Shown here piece after piece: positions 9,120 through 60,344 of a stretch of DNA of 64,000 bases (positions are counted from its first letter, which is position 1; each line of letters begins with the position of its first letter). Location: the NCBI GenBank assembly GCA_964016885.1, contig OZ024764.1:25110001-25174000 (forward strand), given 5' to 3'. A model generated the notes under the pieces. The model made no database searches, was not told the origin of the DNA, and saw only the letters and a list, made by a program, of their open reading frames with translations. This stretch comes from Eledone cirrhosa (Eukaryota). Position numbers and translations under genes: made by a program.

Positions 9120-10363
9120 TTTATATATATATGTGTGTGTGTGTGTATATATATATATACACATATATATATATATATATAATGAAAAATAAATGTTAGG
9201 AGCGAAAGAGAGGAATATCCATCGTCAGTTGTCTGCTAGGAATCATAGGTGTTTCTTCGTGTTAGGGGCAAGATACCTCAGCCTAGGGTGAACTATAACT
9301 AAAATAAGTTATTGGGATAAAAAAAAGGGGGGAAAGAGAGAAAAACATGTAAACAGACACGAAGGGTGAAGCAACGTAAAGAGAGGAAAAATAGGAAATA
9401 TATCAAGTCAACAACTCATTTCGAACGTAAGAATGGTGGTGAGTTTGACGACAGAGAAAACGACACGTCTTCACTGTTGCAGTGTTAGCGAGAGAAGAGG
9501 CTGCTTACAGTGGTGGACAAGGGAGGAAGTGAACTAGTGGAGAGAGGGAGTGAGTGAAAGTAAGAGGAAGCGAGAAAGAGATAGTTATAGTGGCAGGGTA
9601 GCCGAGATAAGGTGACTAGCAGAGGGGTGAGCGAAAGTAAGAGGGAGAAGGAGAGAGAAGGGGGAGAGAGATGATAGGAAGAAGGGGAGAGAAAAGTGAC
9701 GGGTCACAGCGAAGAAGGAAGCTTATATGAATAAAATGGTGAGCTGTGTGGTTGCAAATAAGTAAAATGAAATAAAAATCTATCTATATAACATAGACAT
9801 CTAAGGGCCTGGAGATTAGGTCACAAATTTGATCCCTCTTACAATCTGGAGATATGGTCAATATGGGCCTTAAAACCTTGAGTCCCTTTTCTTCTGTGTA
9901 TGAACAGAAATAAATAATTGTTTCTACTTTTGGCACAAGGCCAGCAATTATTCAGTGCATTATTAGTACTTTATTTTATCGACCCCGTAAGGATGAAAGG
10001 CAAAGTTAACCTCGGCGGGATTCGAACTCAAACCATAAAGGGGCGTAACTCTTTGCTGCAAAGCATGGCGTCAGACCCTCTACCGATACTGCCAACCCTG
10101 AAATAATGTAATATATATATATATATATGTATGTGTGTATGTATCTATTTATATATTTAACTATATTTTTTGTAATCACAGAGCTGGACAGAGTCCACTT
10201 CCACAACACAGTAACGTGTAAGTTTTAGTTTTATACACTATCTAACCATTATTCTATCTGTTCATTCCCGTCTCTCTCTATCTCTCTCTCTATATATTTA
10301 TATATATATATACATAAGTATGTATATATATATAAGTATGTATACGTACATAGATATATGTAT

Positions 10364-10627
10364 CCATGTAGGGGCTCCCAAAGGAGCACTGAGTGCAATG
10401 TCAACTCTGGATGTCGGTGAGTATGTCCAGCTAACCTCAGTCTCCTCTGTGTCACCTTTGAGCTGACCTTTGGACACACTAGAAGAGGAAGACCAAGGTT
10501 AACGTATGTTGATGCCCTAAGGACAGACACTGGTCTGTTGGAGACGCAAGAGATGGCAGCGATAATGAGGGACAGAGACCGCTGGAGAGAACTCGTCCAT
10601 GGATCTCGGGAATTTTACCCGCCTTAG
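10364..10627 (+). mobile_element. Short 3' fragment of the 49490-52539 RTE with a 5' inversion
   Basis: 10471-10627 matches 52383-52538; 10364-10470 is the inverted upstream segment. Copies near 29005 and 37485. Confidence 0.85.
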
Positions 10628-10630
10628 CGA

Positions 10631-11327
10631 TATATGTATACAGACGTACAGTAGTATGTATATCTATATACATACATGCACACACATATATATATGAACG
10701 TATGGATTCACCGAACATTTATTATAATGCTCGGTGTGTTTGTAAACAAACATCCCCAATTGTGCCTGACAGTGTCTCACTGTGTCATTTCCCACTCTTA
10801 GTACGTGTGTATACATATATGTATGTACGTATACATACTTATATTTAAGTAACAGCCGTACTAAGAGTGAGAAATGAAATTTCGTTTCATTTTTCCGTTT
10901 ATCCTTTTCGGTATCCCGGCCGAATAACTCACTCGATATGAAAATTAGGCTGCTCAGCTGTTAATATGCATAAGCAGAGTATATACTTTCAGACGTTCAA
11001 CCATCTGGCAGGAATGTATACGTTGCTGACGATATCTAATAAGCTTGAAACTAGTACATCATTCCTTTGTCAGTGTTGAACAAATGAGCAACGATGGTTG
11101 GTAAACACTGTACGGCTTAATTCGGGATGTTTGTTTACAAATACACCGAGCATTATAATAAATGTTCGGTAAATCCATTCGTACATATATATATATGTGT
11201 GCATGTATGTATATATATATACATACTACTGTACGTCTGTATACATATATGTATGTACGTATACATACTTATATTTAAGTAACAGCCGTACTAAGAGTGA
11301 GAAATGAAATTTCGTTTCATTTTTTCT
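10631..11327 (+). mobile_element. Decayed retrozyme-like element (family C) with inverted arm
   Basis: Contains an HHR-like core, a direct repeat with 430-bp offset (10809/11239) and an inverted arm (10631-10775 vs ~11100-11249). Copy at 37738-38434. Confidence 0.6.
10995..11081 (+). ncRNA. Degenerate type I hammerhead ribozyme
   Basis: CTGACGA-tatct aata agctt-GAAAC TA GTA, inside extended stem I pairings gttcaac/gttgaac, ctggca/tgtcag and ggaat/attcc. Copy at 38102-38188. Confidence 0.65.
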
Positions 11328-11332
11328 GCTTA

Positions 11333-12120
11333 TCTATATATATAAAACTGTGGTTGTCTGTCTGTCTATCGATTTTTGGCACACATCTCCTCTTAGAATC
11401 TCTCACGGAATTGCACCGAAATTGCTATACTTGTACATTGAGCCCTAGCGAAGACATCGGAAAAAAAAATATTTCAAATTGACCCACTCTATGTGACGAA
11501 ATCGAATATAATGTATCGATTTTTGAGCGTAAGTGATCAGTTATTTCCCTTTGTTCTGTTTACATTGAGCGTCTTACGTAAAAAATTACGCTGGCTTTAA
11601 CAGTTGTCGAGCCAGCAAAATACTGACCTGCAAAATTCATCAGTTCGAACACTAAGCTTCCGTTTTGCTTCATTTCCATTTAAAAGCATTTTAAAACAAT
11701 ATTTTTACTTGAAAACAAGTCTATTTAAAGACTACGTAAAACAAGCAAATATTTCGTCGTTAGGCGTGCAGACAGACAGTCGTGCAGAGAGGTGATATAG
11801 GCGTGCAGACAGACATAACTGATAATTTGGTTACGCTAATGTTTTTCTCTGCGTTGCAGTGTTTACATTTTCGATCTTTGTTAATAAATAACCAGTGCAG
11901 TTTCTATCCCCAGAATCCTCTTTTGTTATAACATTCGGGTTATCGTTATGTTTTCTTAACTTCATAAGGCATATTGTTGGTTGAGGGAATATTAATCAAA
12001 AACACCACATGCAAGTCTGCACAGTAGACACTACAGTTTTTAAGCCAAGAAAGAAACTTAACATTGTAACTTTAACACAGCTACTGAGCGACCCCGAGCA
12101 ACGCCGGGCTTTACTGCTAG
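11333..12120 (+). mobile_element. Non-autonomous Helitron
   Basis: A|TC...CTAG|T ends, subterminal hairpin CCCGaGC-aac-GCCGGG shortly before CTAG, no TSD. Confidence 0.85.
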
Positions 12121-36245: not shown

Positions 36246-38439
36246 TTTATATATATATGTGTGTGTGTGTGTATATATATATATACACATATATATATAT
36301 ATATATAATGAAAAATAAATGTTACGAGCGAAAGAGAGGAATATCCATCGTCAGTTGTCTGCTAGGAATCATAGGTGTTTCTTCGTGTTAGGGGTAAGAT
36401 ACCTCAGCCTAGGGTGAACTATAACTAAAATAAGTTATTGGGATAAAAAAAAGGGGGGAAAGAGAGAAAAACATGTAAACAGACACGAAGGGTGAAGCAA
36501 CGTAAAGAGAGGAAAAATAGGAAATATATCAAGTCAACAACTCATTTCGAACGTAAGAATGGTGGTGAGTTTGACGACAGAGAAAGCGACACGTCTTCAC
36601 TGTAGCAGTGTTAGCGAGAGAAGAGGCTGCTTACAGTGGTGGACAAGGGAGGAAGTGAACTAGTGGAGAGAGGGAGTGAGTGAAAGTAAGAGGAAGCGAA
36701 AAAGAGATAGTTATAGTGGCAGGGTAGCCGAGATAAGGTGACTAGCAGAGGGGGTGAGCGAAAGTAAGAGGGAGAAGGAGAGAGAAGGGGGAGAGAGATG
36801 ATAGGAAGAAGGGGAGAGAAAAGTGACGGGTCACAGCGAAGAAGGAAGCTTATATGAATAAAATGGTGAGCTGTGTGGTTGCAAATAAGTATAATGAAAT
36901 AAAAATCTATCTATATAACATAGACATCTAAGGGCCTGGAGATTAGGTCACAAATTTGATCCCTCTTACAATCTGGAGATATGGTCAATATGGGCCTTAA
37001 AACCTTGAGTCCCTTTTCTTCTGTGTATGAACAGAAATAAATAATTGTTTCTACTTTTGGCACAAGGCCAGCAATTATTCAGTGCATTATTAGTACTTTA
37101 TTTTATCGACCCCCTAAGGATGAAAGGCAAAGTTAACCTCGGCGGGATTTGAACTCAAACCATAAAGGGGCGTAACTCTTTGCTGCAAAGCATGGCGTCA
37201 GACCCTCTACCGATACTGCCAACCCTGAAATAATGTAATATATATATATATGTATGTGTGTATGTATCTATTTATATATTTAACTATATTTTTTGTAATC
37301 ACAGAGCTAGACAGAGTCCACTTCCACAACCCAGTAACGTGTAAGTTTTAGTTTTATACACTATCTAACCATTATTCTCTCTGTTCATTCCCGTCTCTCT
37401 CTATCTCTCTCTCTATATATTTATATATATATACATAAGTATGTATATATATATAAGTATGTATACGTACATACATATATGTATCCATGTAGGGGCTCCC
37501 AAAGGAGCACTGAGTGCAATGTCAACTCTGGATGTCGGTGAGCATGTCCAGCTAACCTCAGTCTCCTCTGTGTCACCTTTGAGCTGACCTTTGGACACAC
37601 TAGAAGAGGAAGACCAAGGTTAACGTATGTTGATGCCTTAAGGACAGACACTGGTCTGTTGGAGTCGCAGGAGATGGCAGCGATAATGAGGGACAGAGAC
37701 GCTGGAGAGAACTCGTCCATGGATCTCGCCTTAGAGATATATGTATACAGACGTACAGTAGTATGTATATCTATATACATACATGCACACACATATATAT
37801 ATGAACGTATGGATTCACCGAACATTTATTATAATGCTCGGTGTGTTTGTAAACAAACATCCCCAAGTATGCCTTACAGTGTCTCACTGTGTCATTTCCC
37901 ACTCTTAGTACGTGTGTATACATATATGTATGTACGTATACATACTTATATTTAAGTAATAGCCGTACTAAGAGTGAGAAATGAAAATTCGTTTCATTTT
38001 TCCGTTTATCCTTTTCGGTACCCCGGCCGATTAACTCACTCGATATGAAAATTAGGCTGCTCAGATGTTAATATGCATAAGCAGAGTATATACTTTCAGA
38101 CGTTCAACCATCTGGCAGGAAGGTATACGTTGCTGACGATATCTAATAAGCTTGAAACTAGTACATCATTCCTTTGTCAGTGTTGAACAAATGAGCAACG
38201 ATGGTTGGTAAACACTGTACGGCTTAATTCGGGATGTTTGTTTACAAATACACCGAGCATTATAATAAATGTTCGGTAAATCCATTCGTACATATATATA
38301 TATGTGTGCATGTATGTATATATATATACATACTACTGTACGTCTGTATACATATATGTATGTACGTATACATACTTATATTTAAGTAACAGCCGTACTA
38401 AGAGTGAGAAATGAAATTTCGTTTCATTTTTTCTGCTTA

Positions 38440-39370
38440 TCTATATATATAAAACTGTGGTTGTCTGTCTATCTATCGATTTTTGGCACACATCTCCTCT
38501 TAGAATCTCTCACGGAATTGCACTGAAATTGCTATACTTGTACATTGAGCCCTAGCGAAGACATCGGAAAAAAAAATATTTCAAATTGACCCACCCTATG
38601 TGACGAAATCGAATATAATGTATCGATTTTTGAGCGTAAGTGATCAGTTATTTCCCTTTGTTCTGTTTACATTGAGCGTCTTACGTAAAAAATTACGCTG
38701 GCTTTAACAGTTGTCGAGCCAGCAAAATATTGACCTGCAAAATTCATCAGTTCGAACACTAAGCTTCCGTTTTGCTTCATTTCCATTTAAAAGCATTTTA
38801 AAACAATATTTTTACTTGAAAACAAGTCTATTTAAAGACTACGTAAAACAAGCAAATATTTCGTCGTTAGGCGTGCAGACAGACAGTCGTGCAGACAGAC
38901 AGTCGTGCAGACAGACAGTCGTGCAGAGAGGTGATATAGGCGTGCAGACAGACAGTCGTGCAGAGAGGTGATATAGGCGTGCAGACAGATAGTCGTGCAG
39001 AGAGGTGATATAGGCGTGCAGACAGACAGTCGTGCAGAGAGGTGATATAGGCGTGCAGACAGACATAACTGATAATTTGGTTACGTTAATGTTTTTCTCT
39101 GCGTTGCAGTGTTTACATTTTCGATCTTTGTTAATAAATAACCAGTGCAGTTTCTATCCCCAGCATCCTCTTTTGTTATAACATTCGGGTTATCGTTATG
39201 TTTTCTTAACTTCATAAGGCATATTGTTGGTTGAGGGAATATTAATCATAAACACCACATGCAAGTCTGCACAGTAGACACTACAGTTTTTAAGCCAAGA
39301 AAGAAACTTAACATTGTAACTTTAACACAGCTACTGAGCGACCCCGAGCAACGCCGGGCTTTACTGCTAG
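38440..39370 (+). mobile_element. Non-autonomous Helitron with expanded internal VNTR
   Basis: Paralog of 11333-12120 with extra 37-bp and 16-bp units at 38870-39065. Confidence 0.85.
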
Positions 39371-39669: not shown

Positions 39670-40267
39670 GAAAGTATAGAAATTATTGTGAGCGTGAAGC
39701 CAACAGCATTTCATAATATAAGTGACTATAACGTCAGAATGGAAAATAATTAACGTAAGATGTGGGAAAAATAATTCAAACTAAATAAAAAAAAAATCAA
39801 GACAGATTTATCCATAGAATTTTGTGAAATCCAGGGAAAAATCAATAGAGCCTTAACTCTGAATAAAATAAAGTTTAAATACTCATCCTTCAATTTGGAA
39901 AAACTTCAAACGCTCTATATAGTCTTAAAAAGACTATTTCACGAAACTTTCAGTGGGGATGGTGACGGTTGGAACCGTTCATCAGTAGAGCTCAACATGG
40001 TAACCCTAAACCACTGCCAGAATATGCTAAAAAGTTGACATTTGGAGCCTAAAAATATCTCTTCAAAACCAGGGGTCGGCTTGTCTGCTAAATATAGTAT
40101 GTTAACCTTTACCACTGAGGGGTAACAGTGAAACTGCCGGCCAAACACTTGTTGTACACCACTTACCATAACTCTAGCAACCCACCACATTTATTTCTAC
40201 TGAATCTCATATTTGTTAAGACTAACGGAGAGATTATAGTAATATCAATGTCTTACTGTAGCTTATA

Positions 40268-41943
40268 GTGTAGGTTACCATAGGGTAGGTTACTGTAGGG
40301 TAGGATACCGTAGGGTAGGTTACTGTAGGGTAGGGTACCGTAAGGTAGGTTACCATAGGGTAGGTTACTGGAGGCTAGGATACCGTAGGGTAGGTTACTG
40401 TAGGGTAGGGTACCGTAAGGTAGGTTACCATAGGGTAGGTTACTGGAGGCTAGGATACCGTAGGGTAGGTTACTGTAGGGTAGGTTACCATAGGGTAGGT
40501 TACTGGAGGCTAGGATACCGTAGGGTAGGTTACCATAGGGTAGGTTACCATAGGGTAGGTTACCATAGGGTAGGTTACTGTAGGGTAGGTTACTGTAGGC
40601 TAGGATACCGTAGGGTAGGTTACTGTAGGGTAGGGTACCGTAAGGTAGGTTACCATAGGGTAGGTTACTGGAGGCTAGGATACCGTAGGGTAAGTTACCA
40701 TAGGGTAGGTTACCATAGGGTAGGTTACGGTAGGGTAGGTTACTGTAGGCTAGGATACCGTAGGGTAGGTTACTGTAGGGTAGGGTACCGTAAGGTAGGT
40801 TACCATAGGGTAGGTTACTGGAGTCTAGGATACCGTAGGGTAAGTTACCATAGGGTAGGTTACCATAGGGTAGGTTACTGTAGGGTAGGTTACTGTAGGG
40901 TAGGTTACCATAGGGTAGGTTACTGGAGGCTAGGATACCGTATGGTAGTTACTGTAGGGTAGGGTACCGTAAGGTAGGTTACCTTCGGGTAGGTTACTGG
41001 AGGCTAGGATACCGTATGGTAGTTACTGTAGGGTAGGGTACCGTAAGGTAGGTTACCTTAGGGTAGGTTACTGGAGGCTAGGATACCGTAGGGTAGGTTA
41101 CCATAGGGTAGGTTACCATAGGGTAGGTTACCATAGGGTAGGTTACTGTAGGGTAGGTTACTGTAGGGTAGGTTACCCTAGGGTAGGTTACTGGAGGCTA
41201 GGATACCGTATGGTAGTTACTGTAGGGTAGGGTACCGTAAGGTAGGTTACCATATGGTAGGTTACCATAGGGTAGGTTAGCATGGGGTAGGTTACTGTAG
41301 GGTAGGTTACTGTAGGGTAGGTTACCATAGGGTAGGTTACTGTAGGCTAGGTTACCATAGGGTAGGTTACCATAAGGTAGGTTAGCATAGGCTAGGTTAC
41401 TGTAGGGTAGGTTACTGTAGGGTATGTTACTGTAGGGTAGGTTACCATAGGGTAGGTTACTGTAGGCTAGGATAACGTATGGTAGGTTACTGTAGGGTAG
41501 GGTACCGTAAGGTAGGTTACCTTAGGATAGGTTACCATAGGGTAGGTTACTGTAGGGTAGGTTACTCTAGGGTAGGTTACTGTAGGGTAGGTTACCATAG
41601 GGTAGGTTACTGTAGGCTAGGATACCGTATGGTAGGTTACTGTAGGGCAGGGTACCGTAAGGTAGGTTACCATAGGGTAGGTTACCATAGGGTAGGTTAC
41701 TTTAAGGTAGGTTACTGTAGGCTAGGTTATTGTAGGCTAGGTTACTCTAGGGTTGTTTACCATAGGGTAGGTTATCATAGTGTAGGTTACCATAGGGTAG
41801 GTTTCTGGAGGGTAGGTTATTATAGGGTAGGTTATTATAGGGTAGGTTACCATAGGGTAGGTTACCATATGTAGGTTGCAATAGGGTAGGTTACTGGAGG
41901 GTAGGTTATCATAGGGTACGTTAACATAGGGTAGGTTAACATA
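40268..41943 (+). repeat. 15-bp G-rich minisatellite, truncated at a duplication breakpoint
   Basis: Same unit; abuts RTE 3' sequence at 41944. Confidence 0.95.
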
Positions 41944-42130
41944 CTGCACTCAGTGCTCCTGTGGGAGCCCCTACATGGACACACTAGAAGAGGAAGACCA
42001 AGGTTAACGTATGTTGATGCCCTAAGGACAGACAATGGTCTGTTGGAGATGCAGGACATGGCAGCGATAATGAGGGACAGAGACCGCTGGAGAGAATTCG
42101 TCCATGGATCTCGGGAATTTTACCCGCCTT

Positions 42131-42191
<61 letters not shown>

Positions 42192-43137
42192 AATCTATCT
42201 ATATAACATAGACACCTAAGTGCCTGAAGCTTAGGTTACAAATTTGATCCCTCTTACAATCTGGAGATATGCTCAATATTGGGCCTTGAAACCTTAAGTC
42301 CCCTTTGTTCTGTGTATGAACAGAAATAAATAATGTAATATATATATATGTATGTATGTGTATCAATTTATATATTTAACTATATTTTTCTCATCACAGG
42401 AAACAATTTTGTAGCTGGTTTGCTGAACACAAGTGTTTAGGGTAAGTGTTATCTTAACACACTGTCTAACCATTGTTTAATCTGCTCCTTCCACAACCTC
42501 TCCCTTTATACACACAGACACATATACATATGTATACACACACACACATATATATACACCTATATATATATATGTATACAGACACACACATATATATATA
42601 TATATACACATATATATATATACACATATATACATCTATATAAACACACATATATATATACACATATATATATATACATATATACAAGCGAGACACGGCC
42701 TGCCGACCAATCTCGCCTTAAGTGGGACAAAACCGTCCAACCCATGCTGGCGTGGAAGATGGACTTTAAATGATGATGATATATACACACTGACACATAT
42801 TATACATATATATATACACATATATATACGCATATATATATATATATAAAAACAAATAACGAAACGAAATTAAATTTCGTTTCGCTTCTAACTCACTTTT
42901 GTATGACTGACGCTTAAACAATTAAGTTAAAGTGTACATCTACATATGTATACGGAAGTATTAGTATGCATATAAATACACACATGTATACATATGTACA
43001 TGTACTCAGCTTTTCACTAGACACTTTACAGTGAGTGTCAGCTAGTCTGTATGTAACCACACAGGCGGACCGGGTTTTAGAGTCATACGAGTTTTCAAGG
43101 AAACACATTTCCTCTATTCTCCAGAGGGCCAGACAGG

Positions 43138-43182
43138 AATATTGGACTAGTTTCGATGTTATTACATCTCATCAGCAATATT
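43138..43182 (-). ncRNA. Type I hammerhead ribozyme (inverted arm)
   Basis: Reverse complement reads aatattg CTGATGA gatgt aata acatc GAAAC TA GTC caatatt. Confidence 0.9.
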
Positions 43183-43466
43183 TACCTATCTTCCGGCTTC
43201 ATATACATATGTAGATGTACACTTCCGTATACATATGTAGATGTACACTTTAACTTAATTGTTTAAGCGTCAGTCATACAAAAGTGAGTTAGAAGCGAAA
43301 CGAAATTTAATTTCGTTTCGTTATTTGTTTTTATCGTTTCCGCTGAACCGGTGCGTACAATGACTCACGTTCTATGCAAATTAGTCTACCCACTACTAAT
43401 TTTCATAGAAAAAGCATATAACGATATGTGCTTTTACAATTCTCCAGAGAAGCCGGAAGATGGGTA

Positions 43467-43511
43467 AATATTGCTGATGAGATGTAATAACATCGAAACT
43501 AGTCCAATATT
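43467..43511 (+). ncRNA. Type I hammerhead ribozyme; predicted cleavage after C43504
   Basis: aatattg CTGATGA gatgt aata acatc GAAAC TA GTC caatatt; stem I extends over 43440-43532. Confidence 0.93.
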
Positions 43512-43935
43512 CCTGTCTGGCCCTCTGGAGAATAGAGGAAATGTGTTTCCTTGAAAACTCGTATGACTCTAAAACCCGGTCCGCCTGTGTGGTTACATAC
43601 AGACTAGCTGACACTCACTGTAAAGTGTCTAGTGAAAAGCTGAGTACATGTACATATGTATACATGTGTGTATTTATATGCATACTAATACTTCCGTATA
43701 CATATGTAGATGTACACTTTAACTTAATTGTTTAAGCGTCAGTCATACAAAAGTGAGTTAGAAGCGAAACGAAATTTAATTTCGTTTCGTTATTTGCTTT
43801 TATCGTTTCCGCTGAACCCGTGCGTACAATGACTCACGTTCTATGCAAATTAGTCTACCCACTAATAATTTTCATAGAAAAAGCATATAACGATATGTGC
43901 TTTTACAATTCTCCAGAGAAGCCGGAAGATGGGTA

Positions 43936-43980
43936 AATATTGCTGATGAGATGTAATAACATCGAAACTAGTCCAATATT
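43936..43980 (+). ncRNA. Type I hammerhead ribozyme
   Basis: Identical motif, +469 bp. Confidence 0.93.
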
Positions 43981-44404
43981 CCTGTCTGGCCCTCTGGAGA
44001 ATAGAGGAAATGTGTTTCCTTGAAAACTCGTATGACTCTAAAACCCGGTCCGCCTGTGTGGTTACATACAGACTAGCTGACACTCACTGTAAAGTGTCTA
44101 GTGAAAAGCTGAGTACATGTACATATGTATACATGTGTGTATTTATATGCATACTAATACTTCCGTATACATATGTAGATGTACACTTTAACTTAATTGT
44201 TTAAGCGTCAGTCATACAAAAGTGAGTTAGAAGCGAAACGAAATTTAATTTCGTTTCGTTATTTGTTTTTATCGTTTCCGCTGAACCTGTGCGTACAATG
44301 ACTCACGTTCTATGCAAATTAGTCTACCCACTAATAATTTTCATAGAAAAAGCATATAACGATATGTGCTTTTACAATTCTCCAGAGAAGCTGGAAGATG
44401 GGTA

Positions 44405-44449
44405 AATATTGCTGATGAGATGTAATAACATCGAAACTAGTCCAATATT
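44405..44449 (+). ncRNA. Type I hammerhead ribozyme
   Basis: Identical motif, +938 bp. Confidence 0.93.
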
Positions 44450-44873
44450 CCTGTCTGGCCCTCTGGAGAATAGAGGAAATGTGTTTCCTTGAAAACTCGT
44501 ATGACTCTAAAACCCGGTCCGCCTGTGTGGTTACATACAGACTAGCTGACACTCACTGTAAAGTGTCTAGTGAAAAGCTGAGTACATGTACATATGTATA
44601 CATGTGTGTATTTATATGCATACTAATACTTCCGTATACATATGTAGATGTACACTTTAACTTAATTGTTTAAGCGTCAGTCATACAAAAGTGAGTTAGA
44701 AGCGAAACGAAATTTAATTTCGTTTCGTTATTTGTTTTTATCGTTTCCGCTGAACCGGTGCGTACAATGACTCACGTTCTATGCAAATTAGTCTACCCAC
44801 TACTAATTTTCATAGAAAAAGCATATAACGATATGTGCTTTTACAATTCTCCAGAGAAGCCGGAAGATGGGTA

Positions 44874-44918
44874 AATATTGCTGATGAGATGTAATAACAT
44901 CGAAACTAGTCCAATATT
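44874..44918 (+). ncRNA. Type I hammerhead ribozyme
   Basis: Identical motif, +1407 bp. Confidence 0.93.
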
Positions 44919-45143
44919 CCTGTCTGGCCCTCTGGAGAATAGAGGAAATGTGTTTCCTTGAAAACTCGTATGACTCTAAAACCCGGTCCGCCTGTGTGGT
45001 TACATACAGACTAGCTGACACTCACTGTAAAGTGTCTAGTGAAAAGCTGAGTACATGTACATATGTATACATGTGTGTATTTATATGCATACTAATACTT
45101 CCGTATACATATGTAGATGTACACTTTAACTTAATTGTTTATA

Positions 45144-45195
<52 letters not shown>

Positions 45196-45199
<4 letters not shown>

Positions 45200-45709
45200 A
45201 AAGAATAGAGGTGTAACACACAAGTTATTATATATTGATAAACGGAATAGAAAATGCTGACAAATTGTTCAGTTGAAAAATGGTTTAATTAGGAATAAAA
45301 GAGTATTAGTGATTGTAAACACACATGCTCTATGGTGCAATACAAAGAAATATATGTGCATATATATGTATGTATATATGTATATATATATATATATATG
45401 TAGTGGATATATGTATGTGTGTATGTGTATATAGTGAATATCATTTCACACCATTTATTGTTAAGATTTTTGATGTTCTATTAAGAGAACCGATTTTACT
45501 GAAAAAATCGAATAATGTACACCATTTTACCAGGGGGAAAAAAATACTGGTCCACCCACCCACACACACACACACACATATACACAAACACATACACATG
45601 CGTACATCAACATACTAAGAGACTTATACACACACACACACACACACACACGCACTTCTCCGTATAAGAGAAAAGCTGAAAAATATCTTTTGACCTTCGA
45701 ATGACTCTG

Positions 45710-45783
<74 letters not shown>

Positions 45784-45854
45784 ATCTTAATAGCCATTTG
45801 ACACACATCGCTGCTGGCCATTGTCGCAGTATCGAACACCTTACTACTACTACT

Positions 45855-45940
<86 letters not shown>

Positions 45941-46426
45941 ACACACACACACGTATTTGTTGTGAAAGAGTCATTTCTCAATCTTGGCGCAAAACCAATT
46001 TTTTATCCACATGACCTCTACCGACCAATCAAAATTGTTTTGACCAAGAATTTTTGCTGGAGCCACTTTTTTAACATAAAAACAGTCTTGGCGCAAAATC
46101 AACTTTTTACATTCACATGACCTCTACCGACCAATCAAAATTGTTTTGACCACAAGCATTTTTGCAACACAAAAATAGCGCTGGAGCCACTTTTTTAACA
46201 TAAAAACAGGTAGAATTCCCAAAACTAATCAGATCAGAGCAAACAGCACGGACACTCTATCTCAAAATTATTTTTGAAAAGCATTTAGAAATGCGCAACC
46301 GGTAAAAACTTAAAAACTTAAAACCACAACTGAATACTAACCCATACAATCACTAATACTCTTTTATTCCTAATTAAACCATTTTTCAACTGTGAACAAT
46401 TTGTCAGCATTTTCTATTCCGTTTAT

Positions 46427-46430
<4 letters not shown>
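45196..46430 (+). mobile_element. PLE 3' UTR/pLTR remnant with two outward-facing 3' ends
   Basis: 45196-45316 equals 54869-54989; 45317-46430 is the reverse complement of ~54907-55980. Confidence 0.85.
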
Positions 46431-46491: not shown

Positions 46492-46639
46492 TATATATAT
46501 ATATATACATATATATACATATATATATATATGAGTTCAAATCTGCCGAGGTTAACTTTGCCTTTTATCCTTACGGGGTCGATAAAATAAAGTACCAGTA
46601 ATGTACTGGGTAATTGATGCCAAAAGTAGAAACAATTAT

Positions 46640-46930
46640 TTGTCTAAGCAGACAGTACTTGATTTAGGAGTTGCAGAAAGACAATACAGGATATTACCAA
46701 CCTTCCAGGGGTCCGGGTATAATTTTCAATCATATTTTATTTGTTTGACCCGAATTACTTGGTCGTTTCGATGGCTGTGCGGATAATGGTTTAACCATCG
46801 TCTCAGTGTGTTTTGCCTTTTAACTTATGTTGATGCTCTAGTTCACTAGCTTCTATGGAGCGCTTGCCACACATCTCGGAAGTTGTTTTTCGCTAATTTC
46901 CAATAGCAGAAATACGATTCTCGCTAAATT
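46640..46930 (-). repeat. Partial member of the ~617-bp family
   Basis: Reverse complement begins aaatttagcgagaatc like 61980 and stays colinear for ~290 bp. Confidence 0.75.
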
Positions 46931-49152: not shown

Positions 49153-49481
49153 ATATGTATAAATATTTTGTATCTCCAAAGAAATACGGTTTTAGGAAGC
49201 CATAGCTCTGCAAACCCTGGGAGGGTTAACGTCCTCTGGTGATGTCCAGCAGAAGATAGGGGGAAAACCGTATATGCATTCAGGCTTAACTGGCCATCGT
49301 CAGAACGGTCCCTCCCACTGCTTGCAACTGCTGGCCAATTAAGCATGAAATGCATAAACGGTTGTCCCCCTTGATTCTGCTGGACATCACCAGAGGGCGT
49401 TAACCCTGCCCTCCCCGTGTTTGCATAGCTACGGCTTCCTAAAACCGTATTTCTTTGGAGATACGAAATATTTATACATAT
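49153..49481. mobile_element. Fold-back element made of two opposed HHR-bearing termini
   Basis: Imperfect arms of ~140 bp. Left arm minus strand reads ccgtt CTGACGA tggc..gcct GAATGCATA; right arm has GAAATGCATA aacgg. Confidence 0.7.
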
Positions 49482-49489: not shown

Positions 49490-52400
49490 ATCCTCAGTCC
49501 ATCCAATCTCTCTCTCTTCTGTCTCTCCAGACAGAGCACTGAACCCGTTCCTCGCTTCCACTGTGAACCTCTCCTGTAGCTTATCATTTTCCTTGAAAAC
49601 TCCACAGTCATAGATTTCTCTCCGGGGCTGAGCCTTTCTCTTTCTTAAGCTCACGCGGACCTCACTCATAACAAGCCGGTGGTCACTACCCAGTGTACTG
49701 AAATAGTTGTATGGTTCTGTGTTCAGAACACTATTCCGCCACTTTTTCCTCACCAGAATGAAATTAATCTGGGACTTGGACTCTTCCTAAACCTTAGGTT
49801 GGTCGCCATCAAGTTCGCCTCCAGCAGGGTGTCTCTCAGTAGTCTTCCATTTCGGTTGGTGTTGTTATGGAAGTACCAGCAAGGATCTTCACTGCCCTCC
49901 TTACTCAGATGTGCATTGAAGTCCCCCAAAACAAGCAGGATATTGTGTGCTTGAGTGGTGTTGACAGCTCTACACACCTCCTCATGGAACTCTTCCGCAC
50001 TCACATCACTGTCCCCCTCAGTTGGACTATAGGCTGAGATGACTGTCAGTCTTGGGTTTCCATTGAAGGTCATCCTCAACACTCGCGGGGAGACAGGCAT
50101 TATTTCCCTCACCAATAGACTGGTTTTTGTGCTGAAAACAAAACCCACTCCTCCTACTGCAGCATTTGTTGTGTTCTTCACTGCCGATGTAGTGATGAGA
50201 TGGCTCCTCTTCCCGATCATCACACTCCTCACGGGCTCATCGTGTAGGATCCTGTGTTCTTGGATCGCAAGTATCTGTATACCACTCTCCTCGAACAGAT
50301 GTCCCAACTCCCCTCTCTTCTCCAGCGTCCGAATAGTCCTCACATTCAAAGTGCCCATTTTGATGGCTCTTCTGCAGGACAAACCTGCATTCTTTATATT
50401 TGTCTCAGAGACAGCTGATCCATCATCCACTGGCCCTCCCTGTGGCTCTAAGCCAGCAGAGTCATAACGACCAGAGTGCTCCTTGACAGTGTAATTAGGG
50501 GCTCTAACCCTAGTGCTGTTAGATCGACTCTCCATATTTCTTTTCAATGGCTGACAATACCTTACCGGCGCCACTCGAATAAGGTAGTGACGAGGAGGTA
50601 CGGGCACTTCACCAATGCAGTGGCGGAAGCAAGTGAAACCCTGGTGCCGAGGAAAAAGAACAAAAGGAAGCACGTCAGCTCTGCAAACCCAAAAGTGTGT
50701 GCAGCCAGAGAACACCTGAAAGCTGCCAGAGACCAATTCTATGCTGATCCTACGGAGGAGACGATGGAGACTGTGGAGGTGATGAGGGAAGAACTCTGTA
50801 CCGCTTACACTGAGGCCAGAGAGGAGGCACTGATAGAGAAGATCAGAAGTGTGGAGAGAGCTGTTGACAGATCTGGATGTAAGGAGAGCTGGATGATCAT
50901 CAACGAGATCACAGGGAGGAAGAGAAGGTGTTCGAGTCAGATCCAGGGAATGGGGCCTGAGGATAGGAAGAGGAAATGGCTAGACCATTTTAGGACCCTA
51001 CTAGGAGAGCCACCCTTCACAGCCCGGAGCACTGGGGAGATCAGGCGGCTGTTTGAGGAACTGGATATTGAGATAGAGCCCTTCACCAGAGAGGAGCTTC
51101 AGAGAGCCAAGAAGAGGATCAAGGAGGGCAAGGCTCATGGAGAAGATGGAGTGGCATCAGAGGTGATGAAGAGGTGTGATTTTGATGATATCATCCTGGG
51201 GTTCTGTAATCGGGCACTGGAGAAAGGAGTTGCCCCGAATCAGTGGAGGATCAGTAACATCGTCCCAGTGCCAAAGAAGGGAGATCTCTCTAACACCAAC
51301 AACTACAGGGGGATCTCACTGACGTCACTTGTGGCAAAGACCTTCAACAGGATGATTCTTGATTCTTAACAGGATCCAGCCTGAGATGGAGAAGAAGCTC
51401 AGGGACAACCAGAACGGCTTCAGAGAGGGAAGATCAACCACCAGTCACATACTGATGCTGAGGATGATATTAGAGGGAGCTAGAGCAAAGTGCCTTCCTG
51501 CAGTCATGGTTTTCATTGACTTTAGGAATGCCTTTGATTCTGTGGACCATCACTGCTCTACACCAACACCAAAGCCCAAGTCATTACACCTGATGGCATG
51601 ACAGAGTTCTTTGAGATACTGGCTGGAGTGCTCCAGGGAGATACATTGGCTCCCTACCTTTTTATCATCGTAGTGGACTATTGTATGCGCCTTGCACTGG
51701 AGAAACACCAGGACTCTGGCTTTACTGTAGCACCGGCTCAGAGCAGGAGAGTTAAGGCGAAAAAGGTATCGGATGCTGAATTTGCCGACGACATAGTTTT
51801 GGTGACAGATACAGTGAAGGAGGCAGAGGATTTGATGCAGGAAGTTGAGACTGTGTCGATGAGTGTGGGGCTGAGAATGAATGAGACTAAAACAAAATAT
51901 CTGGTAGAGAATGTTGAGAAGCAAGAGGAGATCACTAATGTAGGCGGGAAGCCGCTAAAATTGGTTGAGGGCTTCCTGTATTTGAGAGCAAAGATTGGGA
52001 ATACAGAAGATGATGTGGTTGAGAGGAAGAGCAAAGCCTGGGCGGCGTGTCCCAGCTTGAGATCGGTGTGGAAGTCGGACCTTCGTAAAGACCTGAAAAT
52101 CTGCCTCTTCATTGCTGTAGTGGAGTCTGTGCTGCTGTACGGGTTTGAGACTTGGACACTGACCAAGAAACTCACTCAGATGGTGGATGGGTGCTACACG
52201 AGAATGCTGAGGATGGCTCTGAACATTAATCAGTATACACTGAGGATGAAAAACTCAGAGCTGTATGGGAGCATCCCAAAAGTCAGCTCAAAAGTGACAC
52301 AGAGGAGACTGAGGTTAGCTGGACATGCTCACCGACATCCAGAGTTGACATTGCACTCAGTGCTCCTGTGGGAGCCCCTACATGGACACACTAGAAGAGG

Positions 52401-52537
52401 AAGACCAAGGTTAACGTATGTTGATGCCCTAAGGACAGACACTGGTCTGTTGGAGATGCAGGACATGGCAGCGATAATGAGGGACAGAGACCGCTGGAGA
52501 GAATTCGTCCATGGATCTCGGGAATTTTACCCGCCTT

Positions 52538-52539: not shown

Positions 52540-52594
<55 letters not shown>

Positions 52595-53229: not shown

Positions 53230-53304
<75 letters not shown>

Positions 53305-53527
53305 CAATTAAGTTAAAAATGTACATCTACATATGCATACTGAAATACTAGTGTGTATATGAATACACACACGTATACATATGCAGATGTAACAAGTCTT
53401 TCACTGGTTGCTTTACCGTGAGCAACTCAGCTATTCTGTATGTAAACACACAGACAAACCGGTTTTTAGAGTCATACAGGTTTTCGAGGAAACATCTTCC
53501 CTCTATTCTCCAGAAAGCCAGACAAGG

Positions 53528-53572
53528 AATATTGAACTAGTTTCGTTGTTGTTACAACTCATCAGCAATATT
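53528..53572 (-). ncRNA. Type I hammerhead ribozyme (GUU cleavage triplet)
   Basis: Reverse complement reads aatattg CTGATGA gttgt aaca acaac GAAAC TA GTT caatatt. Confidence 0.92.
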
Positions 53573-53994
53573 TACCTATCTACCGGCCTTTCTGGAGAAT
53601 TGTAAAAGCACATATCGTTATATGCTTTTTCTATGAAAATTAGTAGTGGGCAGACTAATTTGCATAGAGTGTGAGTACGCACCGGTTCAGCGGAGACGAT
53701 AAAAACAAATAACGAAACGAAATTAAATTTCGTTTCGTTTGTAACTCACTTTTGTATGACTGACGCTTAAACAATTAAGTTAAAAATGTACATCTACATA
53801 TGCATACTGAAATACTAGTGTGTATATGAATACACACACGTATACATATGCAGATGTAACAAGTCTTTCACTGGTTGCTTTACCGTGAGCAACTCAGCTA
53901 TTCTGTATGTAAACACACAGACAAACCGGTTTTTAGAGTCATACAGGTTTTCGAGGAAACATCTTCCCTCTATTCTCCAGAAAGCCAGACAAGG

Positions 53995-54039
53995 AATATT
54001 GAACTAGTTTCGTTGTTGTTACAACTCATCAGCAATATT
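53995..54039 (-). ncRNA. Type I hammerhead ribozyme
   Basis: Identical motif, +467 bp. Confidence 0.92.
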
Positions 54040-54461
54040 TACCTATCTACCGGCCTTTCTGGAGAATTGTAAAAGCACATATCGTTATATGCTTTTTCTA
54101 TGAAAATTAGTAGTGGGCAGACTAATTTGCATAGAGTGTGAGTACGCACCGGTTCAGCGGAGACGATAAAAACAAATAACGAAACGAAATTAAATTTCGT
54201 TTCGTTTGTAACTCACTTTTGTATGACTGACGCTTAAACAATTAAGTTAAAAATGTACATCTACATATGCATACTGAAATACTAGTGTGTATATGAATAC
54301 ACACACGTATACATATGCAGATGTAACAAGTCTTTCACTGGTTGCTTTACTGTGAGCAACTCAGCTATTCTGTATGTAAACACACAGACAAACCGGTTTT
54401 TAGAGTCATACTGGTTTTCGAGGAAACATCTTCCCTCTATTCTTCAGAAAGCCAGACAAGG

Positions 54462-54506
54462 AATATTGAACTAGTTTCGTTGTTGTTACAACTCATCAGC
54501 AATATT
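54462..54506 (-). ncRNA. Type I hammerhead ribozyme
   Basis: Identical motif, +934 bp. Confidence 0.92.
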
Positions 54507-54834
54507 TACCTATCTACCGGCCTTTCTGGAGAATTGTAAAAGCACATATCGTTATATGCTTTTTCTATAGAGGGAAGATGTTTCCTCGAAAACCAGTATG
54601 ACTCTAAAAACCGGTTTGTCTGTGTGTTTACATACAGAATAGCTGAGTTGCTCACAGTAAAGCAACCAGTGAAAGACTTGTTACATCTGCATATGTATAC
54701 GTGTGTGTATTCATATACACACTAGTATTTCAGTATGCATATGTAGATGTACATTTTTAACTTAATTGTTTAAGCGTCAGTCATACAAAAGTGAGTTACA
54801 AACGAAACGAAATTTAATTTCGTTTCGTTATTTG

Positions 54835-54868
<34 letters not shown>

Positions 54869-54872
<4 letters not shown>

Positions 54873-55380
54873 AAAGAATAGAGGTGTAACACACAAGTTA
54901 TTATATATTGATAAACGGAATAGAAAATGCTGACAAATTGTTCAGTTGAAAAATGGTTTAATTAGGAATAAAAGAGTATTAGTGATTGTATGGGTTAGTA
55001 TTCAGTTGTGGTTTTAAGTTTTTACCGGTTGCGCATTTCTAAATGCTTTTCAAAAATAATTTTGAGATAGAGTGTCCGTGCTGTTTGCTCTGATCTGATT
55101 AGTTTTGGGAATTCTACCTGTTTTTATGTTAAAAAAGTGGCTCCAGCGCTATTTTTGTGTTGCAAAAATGCTTGTGGTCAAAACAATTTTGATTGGTCGG
55201 TAGAGGTCATGTGAATGTAAAAAGTTGATTTTGCGCCAAGACTGTTTTTATGTTAAAAAAGTGGCTCCAGCAAAAATTCTTGGTCAAAACAATTTTGATT
55301 GGTCGGTAGAGGTCATGTGGATAAAAAATTGGTTTTGCGCCAAGATTGAGAAATGACTCTTTCACAACAAATGTGTGTGT

Positions 55381-55444
<64 letters not shown>

Positions 55445-55515
55445 AGTAGTAGTAGTAAGGTGTTCGATACTGCGACAATGGCCAGCAGCGATGTGTGTCA
55501 AATGGCTATTAAGAT

Positions 55516-55563
<48 letters not shown>

Positions 55564-55885
55564 CAGAGTCATTCGAAGGTCAAAAGATATTTTTCAGCCT
55601 TTGTCTTATACGGAGAAGTGCGTGTGTGTGTGTGTGTATAAGTCTCTTTGTATGTTGATGTACGCGTGTGTATGTGTTTGTGTATATATGTGTGTGTATG
55701 TGTTTGTGTATATGTGTGTGTGTGTGTGTGGGTGGGTGGACCAGTATTTTTTTCCCCCTGGTAAAATGGTGTACATTATTCGATTTTTTCAGTAAAATCG
55801 GTTCTCTTAATAGAACATCAAAAATCTTAACAATAAATGGTGTGAAATGATATTCACTATATACACATACACACATACATATATC

Positions 55886-55924
<39 letters not shown>

Positions 55925-57135
55925 TACATATATATGCACATATATTTCTTTGTATTGCACCATAGAGCATGTGTGTTTACGTGTGTCATTGTGTTTATAT
56001 GTGGGTAGAGATGTGTGTTGATGTAGGTATGTATGTTGACGTGTGTATGTTGTGGGTTCGTCTTAGGGAGAAGTGTTTAGACGGGGTCCGTATTTGTTAA
56101 TGAAGTAAGATTCCTTGCTGATGCGCTGGGCGTGGGTGGCATTATCTTTAAATTTGTAGAGGGGAAAGATTCTGAAGTTGGGATGATTTTGGGCGGCACA
56201 GGTATCAATGTGTTCACTCAGTGGTATTTTCCTGTATTCCGTATTTTAATTTGGGATCTATGGACAGTCATGCGTTGGCGGAGGCTGTTTTTGGTCTGGC
56301 CTATGTATTGTTCTCGACAACCTGAACAAGTTAATACATATATTAGATTTTCCGATGCACATGTGAAGTTGTGTTTTACTATAAAACGTTGTCCATCTTT
56401 GAAATAGAATTCCGAACCCTCTATTAGGTTGATGCAAATGCCACAGTTGGGTCTATCGCATTTTTTTACTGTGGGTTTCGTTGTTGTGGTTGGCAGTACT
56501 TTGGCATGTGTTAAGATGTTTTTCATTGACTTGGATTGTCTTTTGCTCTTTATGATATCGTGTGTTCGTAGAATTTGGCTCATTCTATGGTCCTTTTTCA
56601 ATACAGGTGTCAAAGGCCTCATTGTTGAGGGGTTGTGTGTGGAGATGTATGGAAGAGCTTTTAGTTTTGGTTGATTTACTTTGGGGTGTCTAAGGTCCTG
56701 GGTACTGAGTTTTAGGGCACGTTGGATTCCATTGTCAATTAGTGATGCAGGGTAGTCCCTGCCTATGAGTGTGTCCTTTAGTTCTTGTAGCCGTAAAAAC
56801 AGTCTTGGCGCAAAATCAACTTTTTAAATTCACATGACCTCTACCGACCAATCAAAATTGTTTTGACCACAAGCATTTTTGCAACACAAAAATAACGCTG
56901 GAGCCACTTTTTTAACATAAAAACAGGTAGAATTCCCAAAACTAATCAGATCAGAGCAAACAGCACGGACACTCTATCTCAAAATTATTTTTGAAAAGCA
57001 TTTAGAAATGCGCAACCGGTAAAAACTTAAAAACTTAAAACCACAACTGAATACTAACCCATACAATCACTAATACTCTTTTATTCCTAATTAAACCATT
57101 TTTCAACTGTGAACAGCATTTTCTATTCCGTTTAT

Positions 57136-57138
<3 letters not shown>
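54869..57138 (-). mobile_element. 5'-truncated Neptune-like PLE (GIY-YIG plus 3' UTR) with inverted pLTR arm 56795-57138
   Basis: ORF 56218-56622 has CDRPNCGIC and LIYVLTC..YIGQT. The arm is the reverse complement of ~54907-55250. Confidence 0.88.
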
Positions 57139-57262: not shown

Positions 57263-57495
57263 TTCAAATCTGCCGAGGTTAACTTTGCCTTTCATCCTTA
57301 CGAGGTCGATAAAATAAAGTACCAGTGGTGTACTGGGGTAATCGCTGGCCTTGTGCCAAAAGTAGAAACTATATTTATATATATATATATATAAGTATTG
57401 AAATTTCCGTTGGAAACAGAAAAGGTCATAGAAGTGAAGAGTGCTCTATTTAAGTATCAGAGCAAAATTTAATGTATAAAAATCAATACAATATA

Positions 57496-57573
57496 ATTAC
57501 CTCATTACCAGAGGTTTCCCGAATGAGGCGAATACGAAATAAACGTCTTCATTCGTTCGTCAGACGAGGCAAT
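57496..57573 (-). ncRNA. Type I hammerhead ribozyme (inverted pLTR arm)
   Basis: Reverse complement reads attgcctcgt CTGACGA a cgaatga..tcattcg g GAAAC CTCTG GTA atgaggtaat. Confidence 0.82.
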
Positions 57574-57773
57574 ATAAAACATGGGTAAATACTTAGAAAA
57601 AATCATCTATTACTCAGACCCTTTTAGTGAAAGCTTTAAATTTCGCTAGAGGGTTCACTAATATCTCCGATATTGAGGAGAATGTCATCTTGCATTCTAG
57701 GAACACTCTACTTTTTAATGATAATGACACTTGGGTAAAAATATCTAACCCATAGAACCCATTTGATGTCTCA

Positions 57774-58922
57774 ATGGGCTCTTATGACAGTGCCGATGTT
57801 TGTGATCTGGTCGGCCTATTCCTCTTACATACACTTAAAGAAAAATTTCCTAACCATATTTTGGGACTTTATCGCGACGATGGTCTAATACTTTCCCATA
57901 CCACCATAGGCCATAACTTAGATAGATTAAGGAAAGACTTAATAAAAACCTTCGCTAGTTTTAATCTTAAAATTACTATTGACACTAACCTTTCCAACGT
58001 AGATTTCCTAGATATAAACCTAGATTTGCCTACTGCTTCTTATAAACCATACCATAAACCTAATGAAAACTTAAAATATATAAATAAAGGATCTTGCCAT
58101 CCACCTATAGTTTTTAAAAACCTTATCCCTAATATTAGCCGTAGGATCTCCACCCTCTCTTCCTCAGAAGCTATTTTTAATAAGGCACCCCCCTACTATA
58201 ATAAAGCCCTCCAAAATAGCGGTTTTAGCGAACCGATTAAATACATACCTAACTACACTAACTCTATTAAACATAAAAATAGGAAAAGAAAAATAATCTG
58301 GTTCACACCCCCCTACTCTCTAGCAGTTAAAACTAATGTAGGCAAAAAATTCCTTGAGCTCCTAGATAAACATTTCCCTAGAACACATAGATACTATAAG
58401 ATCTTTAACAGAAACTGTGTTAAAATTAGCTATTCCTGCGGTCCCCCTATTAAGTCCTATATCCTCAACAAAATATCACCTAGAGAAAATCAAACTTGCT
58501 CCTGTAGAATCAAAAGTGAATGCCCATTACAAGGTAAATGCAACACCAAAGCCATTGTATATGCGGCTAAAGTGACAACCATCAGCAACAACCATCCAGC
58601 CACCAGTGAACGATATGTGGGTATGACGCAAGACAGATTCAAAACGCGTTATTACTCACATGTCGCATCCTTTCGACATCCAGAAAAAAGATTTACAACA
58701 GCTCTGGCTAGCAGAATATGGGATTTGAAAGACCAAGGCATCCAATATAAATTAGATTGGTCAATTTTGAACCAATCTAAAAAATATGCTAGAGGAACAA
58801 GAAAATGCACGCTCTGCATAAATGAAAAATATTGGATATTGCAAAATCTAAAATCACCAAAGACCTGCCTGAACACAAAGACGGAAATTTTCACCACACA
58901 TGAAATCACACCTGCTTTCTAG
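57774..58922 (+). pseudogene. PLE RT C-terminal half plus GIY-YIG endonuclease
   Basis: MGSYDSADVCDLVG, GLYRDDG, VDFLDI, CSC..CPL..C, IVY..YVG and CTLC. Homology continues upstream past a stop to ~57605. Confidence 0.9.
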
Positions 58923-59356
58923 CTCATATAAACTTAACACACTTTCAGATACTTATCCTCCATAAACTCTTATTATTCTCTTTTTAATTACCCTTTCTGA
59001 CTTACTTTCTTTTTTATCCTTGTCAATAATTTCATTTATTTTAATTTTTATTTTTACTTCCCATCCACCCCCCCCCCTTTATTCTCCGATTCACTTTCCA
59101 TTTTTTACTTTCCCTTCTTTTACTTCCCTTTTTCCTCCACTAACTGATTACACTTGTCTTTTGTGTTTTTCATCCAGATATATTTTCCATTTTTATTTTT
59201 ATTTTTTATTTTTGCGCAGCCAATCTTACAATTTTATATTTGTACTTACTTATCCACAAGTTTTTTACACCCTGTATCAATATGGCTGAACGCCTTAATG
59301 TGTGTATACTTTTATATATGTACATGAGTGACTACGTATGTGCGCGCGCGTGCGTG

Positions 59357-59415
<59 letters not shown>

Positions 59416-60202
59416 ATATGTATGTGTGTGTGTATGTATATATTATGCGTATGTGTATGTGTCTTTATATCCGTGTTTTTTTTTGTTTTTTTTTGACATC
59501 TCGATTTTATGTTTTTGTTCCTTTTTTCTTCTCCCCCCCCCCTTTCCCCTTTTTTTACTTACTCAGTTTTATGCGTGTGCATGCATACAGGTCAATATGC
59601 GTGAGTGTAAGTATGTGTGTGTGTGTGTGTGTGTATGTACGTATCGAACGTATGGATGTGTAAGTGCGCGTGTGTATATAAGAATATATATTTTCGCTTT
59701 TCTTTTGTGAGACATGCGTGTCTGTGTATGCATGTACCCTTTTTTGTCTTCTTTTCTTTAATTTTTTCTTTCTAAAATTTTTTCTTTCTAAAATTTTTTC
59801 TTTCTAATCTAATTTATTGTTACATTTTTATAAATATATCGAGATTGATACTTTCCTTTAATTATTACACTCCCTTACCTCTTTTACTTCTGCATCTAAG
59901 TGTACGAGTGTGCAGGCGTTTTATGCGCGCGCCTTCATATTCATATATTTATGATGTAACTATTCTGTCTGTAGATTATAGATACATTTGCCCTAAATTT
60001 TAGAATTACGCACACTTTTTCACTATACGTATACATGTGTACATATACATATATGCACATCTGTGAGCGTATATACATACACATACACACACCTAACTAT
60101 ATTTCTTGATAGATTTTTATATATTTCAATTTCTAATTCATTTGTCTATATCTTTTTTTGATTTTCTTGATGATTTTTTCTAAGTATTTACCCATGTTTT
60201 AT

Positions 60203-60280
60203 ATTGTCTCGTCTGACGAACGAATGAAGACGTTTATTTCGTATTCGCCTCATTCGGGAAACCTCTGGTAATGAGGTAAT
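60203..60280 (+). ncRNA. Type I hammerhead ribozyme; predicted cleavage after A60270
   Basis: attgtctcgt CTGACGA a cgaatga..tcattcg g GAAAC CTCTG GTA atgaggtaat. Confidence 0.82.
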
Positions 60281-60302
60281 TATATTGTATTGATTTTTAT
60301 AC

Positions 60303-60344
<42 letters not shown>

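Follow-up and report, generated by a model that had tools for sequence, protein, structure and literature searches.

Penelope-like elements (PLEs) insert with an inverted, truncated arm and a tail of 30–40 bp into (TA)n targets (PMC8557442), and their mobilisation in trans through pLTRs has been described (PMC3846280). In vitro, the PLE PAc Poseidon cuts both strands of AT-rich DNA and extends both, and its reverse transcription (RT) starts internally, at one site on either border of the genomic tail, hammerhead cleavage being unneeded (PMC11167929). Craig et al. give a CxCX5C linker for the Hydra clade of PLEs (PMC8557442). PLEs have also been proposed as the mobilisers of retrozymes, both by Cervera & de la Pena (2020), who take circles as the templates (PMC7229834), and in a 2026 preprint by Li, Clavereau & Pollet, which adds relatedness to pLTRs and co-occurrence with PLEs without settling the mechanism (10.64898/2026.07.22.740005). 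The target-site duplication of animal non-LTR retrozymes, when present, is described as longer than 4 bp. The class is further characterised by self-cleavage, by linear and circular RNA forms, and by having neither an LTR nor a primer-binding site or polypurine tract. The window analysed here, a 64-kb stretch of Eledone cirrhosa DNA, holds three loci, A, B and C, which, judged by their sequence, are members of this known class, the animal non-LTR retrozymes. Their insertion footprint is the known PLE tail signature and not a new mechanism. Retrozymes, PLE tails and inverted arms are each known, and we did not find the combination in print: a literature search that covered mainly the main texts of openly available papers returned no paper that combines a non-LTR retrozyme with inverted arms and a tail or fixed ends.

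Tandem-repeat and alignment comparison across the 64-kb window resolved array A (42846–45141), with a unit of 469 bp, and array B (53303–54841), with a unit of 467 bp, the two units being 89% alike. Both arrays consist of two head-to-head arms that point outward, and their outer ends all sit in (TA)n, where target-site duplication cannot be read (Table 1). The GC content of array A is about 0.37. The ORF list contains no ORF of at least 150 aa within A or B, indicating that the RT/GIY-YIG ORF of an autonomous PLE is absent. The short arm of A carries one hammerhead and differs from the long-arm reference unit at a single position, 199, where it has the base of subfamily B. At the inversion junction of A, base 43201 fits neither arm and is followed by the 23-bp reiteration joined via ACTT that an earlier note on this DNA had described; it proved to be an exact copy of 43228–43250, with ACTT (43221–43224) common to the start of the long arm. 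In B the two arms simply overlap by 2 nt (AT). When public sequencing runs were searched with the A unit, 18 of the 24 matches listed held the stretch or part of it; five of the matches listed (3 organism labels, 3 studies) held at least half of its words, and no RNA run was among the matches listed. None of these matches enters the evidence used below.

Table 1. Positions of the retrozyme loci, their predicted hammerheads and the neighbouring PLEs in the window.
Feature	Position	Strand	Remarks
Array A, (TA)n tract at left end	42832..42848	.	
Array A, short (inverted) arm	42846..43200	-	355 nt; unit positions 186-469 plus 1-71; outer end T2
Array A, inversion junction	43201..43224	+	1 unmatched base, then 23-nt reiteration (43202-43224)
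Array A, long arm	43221..45141	+	4.1 units of 469 bp; outer end T1 (after 45139)
Array A, (TA)n tract at right end	45140..45195	.	
Array A, predicted type I hammerhead	43467..43511	+	stem I 7 bp, CUGAUGA, stem II 5 bp, GAAA, minimal palindromic stem III
Array A, predicted hammerhead cuts	after 43504, 43973, 44442, 44911; after 43145	+; -	
Array A, 68-nt tail	43733..43800	+	T1 (after 43732) to T2 (after 43800), internal A unit
Array B, long arm	53303..54568	-	2.7 units of 467 bp; three hammerheads; outer end T1
Array B, predicted hammerhead cuts, long arm	after 54469, 54002, 53535	-	
Array B, short arm	54567..54841	+	275 nt, no hammerhead; outer end T2
Locus C, left arm	10330..10775	-	outer end is T1 homologue
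Locus C, junction filler	10776..10804	.	about 20 nt antisense to tail region; TACG joins right arm
Locus C, right arm	10801..11334	+	1.25 units of 430 bp; ends 0-4 nt past T2 homologue, then (TA)n
Segmental copy of locus C	37430..38444	.	702/711 aligned bases identical over compared part
PLE X beside A	45196..46428	.	minus arm 45196-45317 to its T2; plus arm 45315-46428 to its T1; 39-nt tail
PLE X beside B	54869..57137	.	minus arm 54869-56794 (T2 end); plus arm 56794-57137 (T1 end)
PLE Z	57394..60304	.	minus arm 57394-57607 to T2; plus arm to T1 (60304); 78-nt tail

A motif scan detected the type I hammerhead motif once per unit, with stems I and II intact, five times in A (four in the long arm and one in the short arm) and three times in B. 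All eight are matched by Rfam HH9 at 31.8–38.6 bits (31.8–33.3 bits in A and 38.6 bits in the long arm of B), every match lying below the gathering score of 52; Rfam microRNA matches, also below the gathering score, were dismissed as TA-repeat noise. The monomers of both arrays are highly self-paired when compared to 60 shuffles each (z −10.3 for A and −11.2 for B). Elsewhere in the window, a solo type I hammerhead-like motif with long stems II and III occurs at 12645–12712 and 39918–39985 (minus strand), in a duplicated element near a 119-nt palindrome (12256–12374).

The long arms of A and B both stop at a site that we call T1 and the short arms both stop at a second site, T2, each arm continuing into (TA)n. 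Downstream of the predicted cut, T1 is reached after 228 nt in A and 232 nt in B, and T2 after 296 and 300 nt, respectively; the two sites have swapped sides between A and B. Since the hammerhead core fixes the sense of the RNA, all four outer ends are sense 3′ ends, away from the cleavage site as the earlier note had it; at 228–300 nt from the predicted cut, ends set by hammerhead cleavage were ruled out. That note also had the arms of both arrays running into (TA)n, which holds for the four ends, with the amendment that the overlap, 3 nt at both T2 ends and 2 nt at T1 of A, shrinks at T1 of B to 1 nt, which is not TA. The tail between the two sites measures 68 nt in A, 68 nt in B and about 54–58 nt in C, and both sites are U-rich in the retrozymes. 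Just before T2 lies a 13-bp tail hairpin (43763–43791; z −3.9 in A and −4.4 in C), which is kept in A, B and C; of its 12 consensus pairs, 3 differ at both bases, a pattern that is only suggestive, coming from what are in effect two lineages. A metagenome scan for the tail hairpin returned 0 loci, and one with a loose hammerhead pattern returned 50, none of which matched unit A or B by BLAST or the tail profile; eight of these 50 matched the hammerhead profile, in the core only. Loci L005, L008, L010, L020, L025 and L043 belong to an unrelated hammerhead-bearing repeat family from one public assembly, and L025 contains two inverted copies at a contig end, where an assembly effect is possible.

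Locus C, found by sensitive BLAST of the A and B units against the window, lies at about 10330–11334 between flanks of its own and has a 430-bp unit, 71.5% identical to that of A and 69.6% identical to that of B. A LINE fragment (10364–10628, with an 11-nt target duplication) interrupts the left arm of C, which reaches the aligned T1 once the fragment is set aside. Beside this arm lies a 13-nt reiteration of the T1 end (10314–10326), and the stretch 10314–10335 resembles what an aborted start and renewed priming at T1 would leave. A small hairpin and the antisense filler mark the junction. A degenerate hammerhead core near 11027–11058 aligns to the core of A and B; it fails the hammerhead scan and is without a hammerhead fold. 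The segmental copy of C and a cut copy near 28950–29537 were counted together with it as one insertion, giving three retrozyme loci (n=3), all in one window. A head-to-head inverted, 5′-truncated arm is present at all three, as is a tail on one side only with two alternative 3′ends, and all six ends have a (TA)n target. The LINE 3′ fragment within C, which has copies near 29001 and 37480, shows a 5′ inversion of its own and comes from a family, presumably RTE-type, whose 3′ end precedes A and B.

The outer ends at the three loci all fall within 4 nt of T1 or T2 (6/6), though C is only 70–72% identical to A and B. With any TA of the unit as the null, the chance that a further locus would meet both sites within 4 nt, a window picked after the ends were seen, is about 0.001 for B and 0.002 for C; under a stricter null of the six TTTA sites per unit (T1 and T2 both carry TTTA), it rises to about 0.06, a value for B only. 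The units contain longer TA-like runs (of up to 5 nt in A and B, and twice 12 nt in C) at which no end falls; since C bypasses both of its 12-nt runs, target overlap does not account for which sites are used. We confirm that the fixed ends at T1 and T2 are real and well above chance. Termini scattered at random over independent loci, the outcome that the earlier note had set against its own proposal, were not seen: all three loci end at T1 and T2, including the independent locus C, which is about 70% alike.

A and B occupy one (TA)n tract of a duplicated segment and may therefore not be fully independent loci. The left flank of A (41957–42846, plus strand) is a copy of that of B (52353–53250), with 880 of 884 aligned bases identical (99.5%), four mismatches and four gap events, and the right flanks are identical over 122 nt and have in common a 2-nt deletion that is absent from three other copies of the element lying there. 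Despite the shared flanks, the units of A and B are 11% different, the arms of each array are of its own subfamily and the junctions differ, and we read A and B as what appear to be two copying events at one duplicated tract. As the window holds 53 (TA)n tracts of at least 16 nt by hand count, the use of a single tract is a coincidence that calls for an explanation. The segments 41957–45317 and 52353–54990 bring two retrozyme subfamilies, in opposite polarity, to one duplicated (TA)n tract next to a PLE X tail; candidate explanations are a preference for the site next to the PLE tail, reciprocal loss through (TA)n from a double array that was ancestral, and replacement. Near 23010 lies a third X tail, which no retrozyme adjoins. 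A strand-skewed 15-bp satellite within a larger repeated module (3085–6731, 16124–18077, 30258–33904 and 40266–41938) meets the duplicated flank of A at 41940 through a short microhomology.

The neighbouring PLEs had been credited with inverted arms, and PLEs X and Z do show a design of two ends and inverted arms; in X the two end sites are 39 nt apart both beside A and beside B. The X copy beside B contains a GIY-YIG fragment, below the Pfam cut-off, and a CX4CxxC linker, which is a Neptune/Nematis-type motif, while the CxCX5C linker of Z is a Hydra-type motif; these clade names rest on the linker motifs alone. GIY-YIG matches in the window were found in the neighbours alone and none in the arrays. 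The arm that bears T1 is the long one in A, B and Z and the short one in C and in the X copy beside B, so site and arm length are not linked. Each locus pairs a single T1 end with a single T2 end, and none has two of one kind (5/5, retrozymes and PLE neighbours together, X counted once). In shape, Z and the retrozymes have in common a long tail, T|TAA at T1 and a hairpin before T2 that is weak in Z (z −2.3), and a Hydra-type PLE such as Z would be a first guess, from shape only, at the partner enzyme. The T1–T2 region of the retrozymes has no significant sequence likeness to that of X or Z (6/6 comparisons, p 0.08–0.79), and BLAST of the A and B units gave neither a PLE match nor a pLTR parent in the window; X or Z as sequence parent of the retrozymes was ruled out by these BLAST searches and T1–T2 comparisons.

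Several further features of this neighbourhood were observed. Z has a hammerhead-like core about 35 nt upstream of its T1, read by eye and missed by the scan, and the length of its tail is about twice the published 30–40 bp. The two X copies have a common left end and arms of 122/1114 nt and about 1925/345 nt, respectively, as if one long palindrome had lost different central parts. At 49153–49481 lies a MITE-like, 329-nt imperfect palindrome (82%) with TA-rich flanks. Copies of a tRNA-like SINE are present at 2261–2460, 46533–46641 and 57259–57378, those to the right of both X copies being cut at one point and differing by several percent, more than the left flanks of A and B do; this SINE presumably resembles cephalopod SINEs.

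We consider it fairly probable that a PLE primed twice, at T1 and T2, on an uncleaved multimeric RNA, that the cDNA ends were joined mid-way and that short slips left the reiterations. A PLE enzyme supplied in trans would cut the (TA)n tract on both strands, and each cut DNA end would start reverse transcription, at T1 or T2 of a probably uncleaved multi-unit RNA. The source array would be transcribed to a multimer escaping self-cleavage, as the minimal stem III would allow, and the tail would be recognised, probably via the hairpin just before T2, with priming over an overlap of 1–5 nt. The two cDNAs would then grow toward each other until their 3′ ends are joined by 0–4 nt of microhomology, and the short reiterations would result if the polymerase slipped to a preceding ACTT at the A junction and to T1 once more in C. 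Counting against PLE double priming is the length of the tail at the three loci, which exceeds the published 30–40 nt, though that of Z is longer still. The small number of loci, the absence of significant T1–T2 likeness to X or Z and the U-rich sites, where PAc has an AC-rich stem-loop, also count against it. The two target-primed RT events put forward in the earlier note are supported by the footprint, from which we infer the priming itself. That note gave the template as circular or multimeric; of these, a mixed multimer suits the unit variants better than a monomeric circle does.

These variants are unevenly placed. Units 1 and 4 of array A are identical and units 2 and 3 have three differences each, one derived base being common to both, and position 87 occurs in three states among the units. 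Array B has three private differences, all in the innermost unit, and its short arm shares both of the differences that it covers with that unit (2/2). The short-arm base of A at position 199 is present in B and in no long-arm unit of A, suggesting that the short arm was probably copied from a unit outside the long arm. From this distribution, a multimeric RNA of mixed units seems to us the likelier template, as copying of one monomeric circle should yield uniform units in which errors are scattered. For A, a trimeric circle was ruled out by the short arm, which is without the unit-3 variant at position 191, and a start of both cDNAs in one unit of one RNA was ruled out by the short arm of B, which matches the innermost and not the outermost unit; that match also fits fold-back or later conversion. 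Both short arms fit priming at the first T2 downstream of the point where the long cDNA would have stopped. The unit differences could alternatively stem from later mutation and unequal crossover, and a fuller alternative of this kind, which we hold to be unlikely, retains the PLE enzyme and both sites and replaces the multimer by rolling copying of a monomeric circular RNA, with the differences arising later through mutation, unequal crossover and conversion. Such a circle is the published retrozyme model (PMC7229834), it suits a unit so highly self-paired, and two of the unit-3 changes in A are readable as CpG transitions. Clock-like decay should nevertheless spread the changes, whereas the six differences of A fall in units 2–3 with none in 1 and 4, and those of B fall in the innermost 332 nt with none in the outer 934 nt. 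That the arms pass the predicted cut site without ending there accords with a circle, but an uncleaved multimer passes it likewise.

Priming could also have occurred only once, giving the long arm, the cDNA then folding back to be copied into the inverted arm and the PLE endonuclease trimming the product at a second fixed site. The tail has earlier been attributed to endonuclease resolution (PMC8557442) and the palindromes at inverted junctions to self-priming (PMC3846280), and the variants in the short arm of B, the hairpin and antisense filler at the junction of C and the constant pairing of one T1 with one T2 end would all suit such an event. Yet the base at position 199 in the short arm of A is present in B and in no long-arm unit of A, the site that closes the long arm (T1 or T2) varies among loci, an overlap of 0–2 nt at the A and B junctions is too little for a stable fold-back, and the two sites of the PLE studied in vitro are both start sites (PMC11167929); we give this single-priming account little credence. 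Still less probable, in our judgement, is that there are no fixed sites at all and that the ends reflect chance (TA)n microhomology, common descent of A and B, or DNA rearrangement or misassembly in a nest of repeats. The flanks of A and B are indeed 99.5% shared, TTTA is carried by both sites and occurs just six times per unit, and the window is a patchwork of segmental copies. Against this, A and B differ by 11%, with arms of their own subfamilies, different junctions and swapped sides, the T1 overlap of B is a mere 1 nt, and C, elsewhere in the window and about 30% diverged, ends at the same two sites and bypasses its 12-nt TA runs.

The ends of the retrozymes appear to provide footprint-level support for mobilisation by PLEs, which so far has only been proposed (PMC7229834, 10.64898/2026.07.22.740005). 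Evidence from an insertion footprint bears more directly on how animal retrozymes enter genomes, and the one described here names two template positions, a candidate recognition hairpin and a likely template form, all testable with the existing PLE in vitro assay (PMC11167929). A broader and more doubtful reading, which we put forward tentatively, is that animal retrozymes are parasites of PLEs, the enzyme (Hydra-type here) reading a hairpin-marked tail cassette of 55–70 nt and priming both cut strands coordinately at T1 and T2 on an uncleaved multimer. If it is true, the abundant circles would be by-products and not transposition templates, tail length and shape could match a retrozyme family to its PLE partner without sequence homology, and the telomerase-like slips to T1 would be the trace of repeated initiation.

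In L1 twin priming, two primings take place on one target and the resulting inversion is joined through microhomology; the first end is poly(A) and the second site varies. The arrays resemble it in the two primings that they suggest at one target and in an inversion with a microhomology join, and differ from it in that neither end has poly(A) and both ends are fixed internal sites. Like animal non-LTR retrozymes, the arrays are non-coding, low-GC (<50%) tandem units with a type I hammerhead each, are highly self-paired and are found beside PLEs (PMC7229834, 10.64898/2026.07.22.740005). Their units of 467–469 bp are just above the 150–450 bp of one description (PMC7229834) and inside the 51–972 bp of the other (10.64898/2026.07.22.740005); inverted arms, fixed ends and a tail are absent from the published descriptions, as far as these two sources give them, and the variants found here favour mixed multimers over the circle template of the former. 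The non-autonomous Chlamys derivatives such as MRC1 are likewise non-coding PLE dependants with multicopy head-to-tail insertions, but their 3′ ends are in general similar to those of their autonomous partners, and canonical hammerheads are missing from most Chlamys (PMC8557442), whereas the arrays have hammerheads and no detected likeness to the PLEs in the window. When compared to PAc, whose sites lie in an AC-rich stem-loop about 90 nt from the cut (PMC11167929), the sites described here are U-rich and 220–300 nt from it. The arrays further differ from PLEs in being without an ORF, in a tail of 54–68 nt versus 30–40 nt and in having up to four full units per arm; with the tail and inverted-pLTR signature of PLEs they nonetheless have in common a head-to-head truncated arm, two alternative 3′ ends, a one-sided tail, an AT-rich or (TA)n target and ends that lie downstream of the hammerhead and not at its cut (PMC11167929, PMC8557442, PMC3846280).
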